In this document: positions 10,050 to 10,172 of the stretch, one piece after another
How positions within the stretch are numbered: the first letter of the stretch is position 1
Layout of the letters: each line of letters opens with the position of its first letter
NCBI GenBank assembly: GCA_947478525.1
Contig: CANJVU010000004.1
Span: 22,458 to 86,457 of the forward strand
Origin: Thiotrichales bacterium
GTDB lineage: Bacteria; Pseudomonadota; Gammaproteobacteria; Francisellales; CACEW01
Length of the DNA: 64,000 nt
Direction of reading: 5' to 3'
Translations under genes and position numbers: made by a program
The notes under the pieces: generated by a model
What the model was told of the DNA's origin: nothing
The model's input: only the letters and a program-made list of their open reading frames with translations
Databases searched by the model: none

Positions 10050-10077
10050 TTGACAATGAGTATTACCGTGTTATGAT
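10050..10077 (+). promoter_or_regulatory. sigma70-like promoter (TTGACA-16 nt-TATGAT) with AT-rich upstream tract
   Basis: -35 TTGACA at 10050-10055 and -10 TATGAT at 10072-10077. The upstream sequence TTTTTAATTAGCTTAAAATAAAG is UP-like. Confidence 0.5.
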
Positions 10078-10083
10078 GATGCC

Positions 10084-10172
10084 CGGCATTTGATAACTTA
10101 TTAGCCTGCTACAGCGCAACTTTCTCCTCCTCATTCATTGCGCTACACACCGTCAAATGCCACCTCTTTTTG
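10084..10172 (+). ncRNA. candidate ~90-nt sRNA: a single long hairpin with a CU-rich apical loop
   Basis: Predicted TSS is about 7 nt after the -10 box. Outer stem 10085-10093 / 10153-10161 (9 bp) and inner stem 10113-10119 / 10138-10144 (7 bp). Loop CTTTCTCCTCCTCATTCA, then ACCTC TTTTT. No ORF. Confidence 0.4.

Follow-up and report, generated by a model that had tools for sequence, protein, structure and literature searches.

A putative operator-controlled promoter and a candidate hairpin-first non-coding RNA in an integrase/AlpA/primase island

Introduction

Does a short non-coding stretch of a mobile island, positions 10050-10172, encode a regulatory RNA, and by which means might such an RNA act? 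A preliminary description had proposed a self-contained small RNA (sRNA) with a near-consensus promoter, a single long hairpin and a CU-rich loop. By complementarity of this loop to GGAGG-type ribosome-binding sites (RBS) the RNA was compared with RNA antitoxins and translational repressors. Here these proposals are examined in the window, i.e. the whole stretch of 64,000 nucleotides that was analysed.

Genomic context

The locus is located within 1.8 kb of non-coding DNA (8800 to 10646, without a credible gene) of a 15-kb integrase/AlpA/DUF3987-primase island inserted at tRNA-Met. The att direct repeat, TGGTTGCGGGGGCA..., was found at 5596-5618 and 20625-20647, the latter being the 3' end of tRNA-Met (20625-20701, minus strand). 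The island is placed between tRNA-Met and rimP-nusA-infB. Its plus strand carries AlpA, the DUF3987 primase-helicase and a 108-aa ORF; further proteins are a tyrosine integrase (19223-20449, minus strand), a TIR-domain protein, a POT transporter and an orphan 429-aa protein (integrase, AlpA and DUF3987 were assigned by Pfam). The hcp/LysM-protein operon (10646-13159, minus strand) ends at 10646, and a transcript from 10050 would run convergently to its 3' end. An integrase next to a tRNA gene with an att repeat, AlpA, a primase-helicase and a putative iteron-bearing origin are all present. The gene set of the island is that of P4-like or PICMI-like satellites; this assignment is used as genomic context only.

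Iterons of the type TGCCAAAAC/G are located at 8500-8960, directly after the primase, and are the sole non-coding part common to related islands. Two repeats of 103 nt (8526-8628 and 8814-8916) contain TGCCAAAACTGCCAAAAG in both direct and inverted orientation; they directly follow the DUF3987 primase and overlap the 108-aa ORF. In the related islands L005 and L031-36 the primase is likewise followed by iterons of this kind. This cluster is the probable origin of replication of the island. A 109-nt direct repeat (6063-6171 and 6438-6546, 87% identity, 375 nt apart) comprises leader, RBS and first codons of alpA. In the upstream copy an ORF of 57 codons begins, the N-terminus of which is AlpA-like; this is probably a duplicate of alpA that has decayed. 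The orphan Hcp operon encodes in addition a LysM-domain protein of 348 aa and proteins of 124 and 192 aa without homologues, and may represent a T6SS effector/immunity set. The TIR-domain protein (18515-19219) displayed sub-threshold similarity to Thoeris ThcB4 and retron-TIR models. Elsewhere in the window the tmRNA gene (51086-51501) is unusually long with 416 nt, and the tag peptide predicted by ARAGORN is atypical, ending in ...VTRKKAA.

Promoter and heptamers

The promoter of the preliminary description was read directly from the plus strand: TTGACA at 10050-55, a 16-nt spacer and TATGAT at 10072-77. A TG at 10069-70, at the end of the spacer, makes the -10 an extended one. The UP-like tract was equally evident, as the 30 nt 5' of the -35 (10020-49) are about 83% A+T. 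In a promoter scan this sigma-70-type site (10050-10077) scored 11/12 with the extended -10. By chance a 64-kb window should contain 1.6 matches of at least 11/12, and 2 were observed; with the additional TG the expectation drops to 0.12, and 10050-77 is the sole such site in 64 kb. The candidate RNA would have its own predicted promoter directly upstream (11/12 plus TG), as is the case for Rho-independently terminated, Hfq-type trans-acting sRNAs.

Two tandem heptamers, GTATTAC-C-GTGTTAT (10060-10074, plus strand), are embedded in spacer and -10 and constitute a putative operator. This tandem form, GTRTTAYNGTRTTAY, has exactly two copies in 64 kb (10060-74 and 10366-80), where shuffled sequences predicted 0.00. 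The second copy is the head of a downstream array (10366-10548, not assigned to a strand), in which GTGTTAC heptamers lie at 10366, 10374, 10385, 10434, 10445 (inverted), 10531 and 10542. Altogether, nine GTRTTAC heptamers occur in 490 bp, two in the promoter and seven in the array, compared with a background of 2.3 per kb. Many have a 7+4-bp tandem spacing, and the array includes an A+T-rich gap and an inverted pair. A facing promoter-like site on the minus strand (10459 to 10431; 9/12 in the promoter scan) consists of TTGACG (10459-54), a 17-nt spacer and TACATT (10436-31). Two heptamers are inserted between its -35 and -10, so that both sites have the order -35, heptamer, heptamer, -10 in common. 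Because a heptamer pair occupies spacer and -10, seven more follow downstream and the facing site is built likewise, the 10050 promoter is probably real and under operator control by a GTRTTAC-binding protein. The simplest reading would be that one sequence-specific DNA-binding factor occupies two face-to-face promoters. Searches with Pfam, NCBIfam, PHROGs and PDB sequences found no DNA-binding candidate for this role among the orphan proteins of the island. No rep-like, repressor or regulator gene flanks either heptamer-bearing promoter.

The array is part of a larger module. Exactly past the U-run of the candidate RNA a paralogy starts: 10171-10560 and the reverse complement of 17990-18395 have 74% identity. 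It opens with a conserved leader of 175 nt (10171-10345, plus strand), paralogous to the reverse complement of 18219-18395. Two modules of about 400 bp in inverted orientation flank the cargo genes of the island. In the second module (18395-17990) GCATTGC/GCAATGC is found at every aligned position of a GTGTTAC heptamer. This specificity swap is consistent throughout and of a kind typical of sites which co-evolve with their binding protein. The second copy has neither promoter nor hairpin; hence, neither belongs to the conserved part of the module. The plus-strand reading frames differ between the two leader copies, and the leader is probably non-coding. The two inverted modules were also considered as transposon ends. 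This was rejected: the repeated motifs differ, and a target-site duplication and a transposase are absent.

Hairpin and neighbouring palindromes

A transcript starting near 10084 was proposed to fold at once into one long hairpin, and the predicted fold agreed with this. The predicted 92-nt RNA folds into a two-stem hairpin of 77 nt (10085-10161, plus strand; inverted repeat I7), the start of which coincides with the predicted +1. The outer stem, GGCATTTGA (10085-93) with TCAAATGCC (10153-61), has 9 perfect base pairs and is extended by a U-G pair to 10 bp (10085-94 / 10152-61). The inner stem, AGCGCAA (10113-19) with TTGCGCT (10138-44), has 7 bp. The apical loop at 10120-37 is CTTTCTCCTCCTCATTCA with 18 nt. 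The CU-rich loop CUUUCUCCUCCUCAUUCA was unpaired in the MFE as well as in the centroid structure. The folding energy was -19.5 kcal/mol (z = -3.7), and none of 200 shuffled sequences folded as well.

The hairpin is significant, but it is not unique. Neighbouring windows at 9130, 9390, 9730 and 9950 reached z values of -4 to -5.7. In the 1.1 kb to the left there are at least five palindromes which are as significant or more so. With the hairpin being one of at least six strong palindromes, it is possible that the cluster could be a DNA-level property of the region.

Several observations concern this neighbourhood. The palindromes run through non-coding DNA from 9100 to 10000 (9137-64, 9445-71, 9754-70, 9778-9817 and 9962-92). 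On the minus strand, the palindrome at 9770-9754 is followed by a T-run and makes a good intrinsic terminator. A promoter-like site is present on the same strand at 9731-9702, and further small transcripts are possible in 9100-10000. The palindrome at 9962-9992, 60-90 nt upstream of the 10050 promoter, has a core, CGTCACTA...TAGTGACG, in common with 17750-17791. The latter is an inverted repeat of 16 perfect base pairs, with the second module on one side and the POT transporter gene on the other. These two palindromes may be sites for a second DNA-binding protein.

Is the region then primarily a DNA element? Array and palindromes would form a protein-binding control, replication or packaging region. 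The promoter would be real, transcribing across the array or being autoregulated by analogy to the Rep-operator promoters of iteron plasmids, and the hairpin RNA would be a by-product. The nine heptamers with their tandem spacing, A+T-rich gap and inverted pair argue for this, as do the uniform replacement by GCATTGC in the paralogue, as with sites co-evolving with a binding protein, and the many palindromes in 9100-10200. Furthermore, large non-coding regions have been reported for satellites of this gene content (PMC10803314). However, the origin iterons of the island are of the TGCCAAAAC type and are located elsewhere (8500-8960). They are the only ones common to related islands, for which reason the heptamer array was rejected as primary origin. 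In addition, searches of the proteins of the island yielded no heptamer-binding candidate, and no rep-like gene follows either promoter. We regard a purely DNA-level element as possible, yet on balance unlikely.

The 3' end and relatives of the candidate RNA

The tail proposed after the hairpin is present: ACCTC at 10162-66 and TTTTT at 10167-71. On the plus strand this ACCUC spacer plus U5 run (10162-10171) is at best a weak intrinsic terminator. The typical U-tract of at least 6-8 nt directly after a G+C-rich stem is missing, as five non-U bases precede U5. The terminator scan did not call hairpin and T-run, and its next terminator-like site on the plus strand was at 11012. Because of the weak terminator, the product of about 85-95 nt that had been predicted is not assured. 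A longer, 277-nt read-through transcript had no significant structure (z = -0.36).

Relatives of the locus were sought at several levels. An Rfam search of the whole window at gathering threshold returned only the tmRNA and two tRNAs. Within 8400-10700 at E up to 10 all Rfam matches were at chance level, and none was to C4 (RF01695). With blastn the locus had no match among plasmids, phages and E. coli genomes. A pattern scan with the leader block TGCTCAATCGCCNNNTGGCTCA gave 0 matches in IMG/VR; the 19 from JGI metagenomes were practically without exception coding sequence or chance. With a gapped pattern of the leader 2 matches came up, both by chance. Homologues of the primase reached at most 72% identity and those of the integrase at most 82%. 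Islands with primases 69-72% or integrases 77-78% identical were without the locus, and eleven related loci (L005, L031-36 and L039-42) had only the origin iterons in common with the island, or nothing. The neighbouring 192-aa protein is an orphan, too. The sequence of the locus was 100% identical in contigs from three independent samples; the environments concerned have the records ENA ERZ27277814, SRR6787039 and ERR3761218/9. Neither for the hairpin nor for the promoter or the module was a diverged homologue found in the searched collections and related islands. A slightly diverged variant strain was represented by contigs of 0.6-2 kb only, which end short of the locus. The candidate matches no described family; if real, it would be a new member of the regulatory RNAs of islands, a broad class.

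A covariance model of the hairpin found the hairpin itself and a single further site, an 18-bit match at 23173-23262, which is antisense to the RBS of another gene. Read on the minus strand, this site is where an unannotated 216-aa gene just beyond the island has its RBS and start. The likeness to the hairpin is probably an SD-driven chance similarity.

From such data it could be argued that nothing functional is encoded here, i.e. that a chance promoter match happens to lie beside one of many palindromes in the decaying non-coding DNA of a mobile island. As stated, 1.6 promoter matches of at least 11/12 are expected per window, a look-elsewhere effect comes with scanning 64 kb, five other local hairpins are equally or more significant, the terminator is weak, and homologues and Rfam matches are absent. 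Yet by chance a window would hold no more than 0.12 combinations of a perfect -35 and a correctly spaced, TG-extended -10, and the heptamer pair ties the promoter to the array (estimated P < ~0.01, allowing for position, strand and spacing). A locus without any function is, in our view, unlikely.

Predicted targets of the loop

The loop exposes an unpaired pyrimidine-rich motif complementary to the Shine-Dalgarno (SD) sequence, and the preliminary description had deduced a repressor which occludes the RBSs of hcp and of a 52-aa ORF. A duplex scan of the whole window did not bear this out. Both pair poorly with the loop, at -7.9 kcal/mol (hcp) and -11.0 kcal/mol (52-aa ORF) against a first percentile of the background of -15.2 kcal/mol. 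Within the island the best-pairing RBSs are those of the primase (-15.9 kcal/mol) and of the 108-aa ORF adjoining it (-17.6 kcal/mol). The best non-self duplexes, at about -22 kcal/mol, are inside the expected tail (0.1 percentile -20.3 kcal/mol), and there was no outlier except the self-antisense. Any strong RBS scored well because predicted duplex energies track SD strength. Pairing above background beyond that with a generic SD was not observed for any target.

The best predicted loop target in the window is the RBS of the 216-aa non-island gene (-22.3 kcal/mol). It has ATGAATGA and GAGGAGAAA in common with the complement of the loop.

Coding potential and the opposite strand

The statement that no ORF is present holds for credible genes; no SD-bearing plus-strand ORF is found downstream of the 10050 promoter. 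It does not hold for two short frames, a 33-codon plus-strand ORF at 10157-10258 (no SD) and an 18-codon ORF on the minus strand. The minus strand of the loop (10120-10137) reads as an RBS with a start codon, GAGGAGGAGAAAG-TTG: GAGGAGGAG is followed by a TTG which opens the 18-codon ORF (10119 to 10063).

This raised the question whether the minus strand is the functional one. The loop, GAGGAGGAG, could be the RBS of the 18-codon TTG ORF, or could present a GGA to a CsrA-type protein in read-through RNA of the hcp operon. Indeed, all six IMG/VR matches of the loop 18-mer were reverse complements of ordinary phage RBS-ATG junctions, i.e. its reverse complement is identical to genuine RBS-start junctions with an equally spaced start codon. 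Since a strong minus-strand terminator is absent between the end of the hcp operon (10646) and 9770-9754, leftward transcripts may cross the hairpin. Nevertheless, the 18-aa product, MRCSRLISYQMPGIIITR, is of no recognisable type and not hydrophobic, and its ORF stops inside the promoter of the plus strand. The TTG start is buried in the inner stem, just one loop bears a GGA, and there is no minus-strand promoter nearby. All this renders a minus-strand function very improbable.

An RNA-antitoxin reading had also been brought forward. It was not borne out: no small hydrophobic toxin ORF with an RBS and under coding constraint overlaps or adjoins the RNA, and the candidate ORFs fail by coding constraint, RBS quality and hydrophobicity. 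One of them is a 35-codon minus-strand ORF (10342 to 10235; MKKRHISLATTQFYLCTKSAAGVLKFWLLLLLFVL), for which the same frame and the same ATG are open in the paralogous copy. Aligned with the paralogue, its substitutions on codon positions 1, 2 and 3 number 11, 15 and 12, a spread which does not suggest purifying selection on the protein. To a type I toxin-antitoxin pair, with the plus-strand RNA as antitoxin and this ORF as toxin driven by the facing promoter, we give hardly any credence: the promoters are convergent and the ORF is small, open in both copies and hydrophobic at its C-terminus, but besides the substitution spread it has no usable SD and a TIR duplex of only -4.9 kcal/mol, the hydrophobic stretch of copy 1 is only ~13-16 residues long and the second copy is without the antitoxin promoter.

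Discussion

What, then, is encoded at 10050-10172? Of the self-contained sRNA proposed initially, a putative promoter driving a non-coding, hairpin-first transcript is supported, the promoter also by the heptamers; the anti-SD and antitoxin roles are not supported. The locus is a plausible lineage-specific non-coding transcript. Our preferred reading, tentative as it is, combines an operator-controlled promoter, a hairpin-first RNA restricted to this lineage, partial termination at U5 and convergent read-through, with the RNA acting, if at all, by antisense or anti-SD pairing. From promoter and fold we infer the following course. A GTRTTAC-binding protein would control the promoter at 10050-77 in the integrase/AlpA/primase island. 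The plus-strand RNA would start near 10084, and its first 77 nt would fold at once into the hairpin which displays the CU-rich loop. As the stem is followed by ACCUC and five U only, termination would probably be partial and yield an RNA of about 85-88 nt in addition to read-through. The latter would extend through leader (175 nt) and heptamer array and collide with the facing, likewise heptamer-bearing promoter on the minus strand (10459 to 10431) and with the hcp operon at its 3' end. Most likely, the RNA would act by base pairing, either as a cis-antisense RNA to leftward transcripts or by its CU-rich loop on strong GGAGG RBSs.

A more ambitious version is conceivable, in which the locus would be an RNA-based switch of the satellite-type island. 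Two face-to-face promoters would be governed by one heptamer-binding protein, and the loop would silence translation of the replication genes of the island, among whose RBSs those of primase and 108-aa ORF pair best. Its specificity would be exchangeable, as the GTGTTAC and GCATTGC versions of the module suggest. This would be a functional parallel to the RNA immunity of P4 (CI) and P1 (C4) with an unrelated RNA. We consider such a switch quite improbable.

The comparison with known systems is instructive. The P4 CI and P1/P7 C4 antisense RNAs (RF01695) are immunity factors of a satellite and of phages. They are processed from an operon leader, and by their exposed loops they base-pair to complementary stretches of transcripts from the same element; the C4 target overlaps an RBS. 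The candidate is similarly a small structured RNA of a phage-related integrative element with an AlpA/primase module. However, it has its own putative promoter, does not match the covariance model even at E up to 10, and complementary target repeats were not found in the alpA-primase leader of the island. CyaR of enterobacteria and RsaE/RoxS of Firmicutes are sRNAs with C/U- or C-rich loops, that of CyaR acting on SD regions. Like them, the candidate has a promoter of its own and a single-stranded, pyrimidine-rich loop which is complementary to RBSs of the GGAGG type. It differs by its weak terminator and by the absence of homologues and of a target above background, whereas CyaR and RsaE/RoxS have canonical Rho-independent terminators, long U-tails and seeds conserved across species. 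With the type I antitoxins Sok, Sib, IstR-1 and RatA it has in common a promoter that looks strong and constitutive, a short structured RNA and a small convergent or overlapping ORF on the opposite strand; unlike there, the candidate toxin ORFs fail the tests for constraint, RBS and hydrophobicity.

Convergent promoters are known from the face-to-face switches pR/pL of coliphage 186 and prgQ/prgX of pCF10, and Rep-operator promoters from pSC101-type iteron plasmids. In the island the two promoter sites likewise are convergent, about 400 bp apart and both overlapped by one repeated motif. Direct repeats, an A+T-rich gap and an inverted pair are further likenesses. In contrast to those systems, the island has no flanking repressor, Rep or regulator gene, and its primase-associated origin is elsewhere (8500-8960).

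At present the practical impact is small, as this is a sequence-level case from a single uncultured lineage. Should the RNA be real, the island would encode a regulatory RNA without relatives in any searched collection, and this RNA would come from the little-studied small integrase/AlpA/primase elements which carry T6SS (Hcp-effector) and TIR-domain cargo. It would then also offer an experimental entry to the extensive non-coding DNA which such elements typically have. The operator-like heptamers with their swapped specificity are a more distinctive and more useful lead than the RNA itself: they predict a sequence-specific DNA-binding factor and a regulated pair of promoters.
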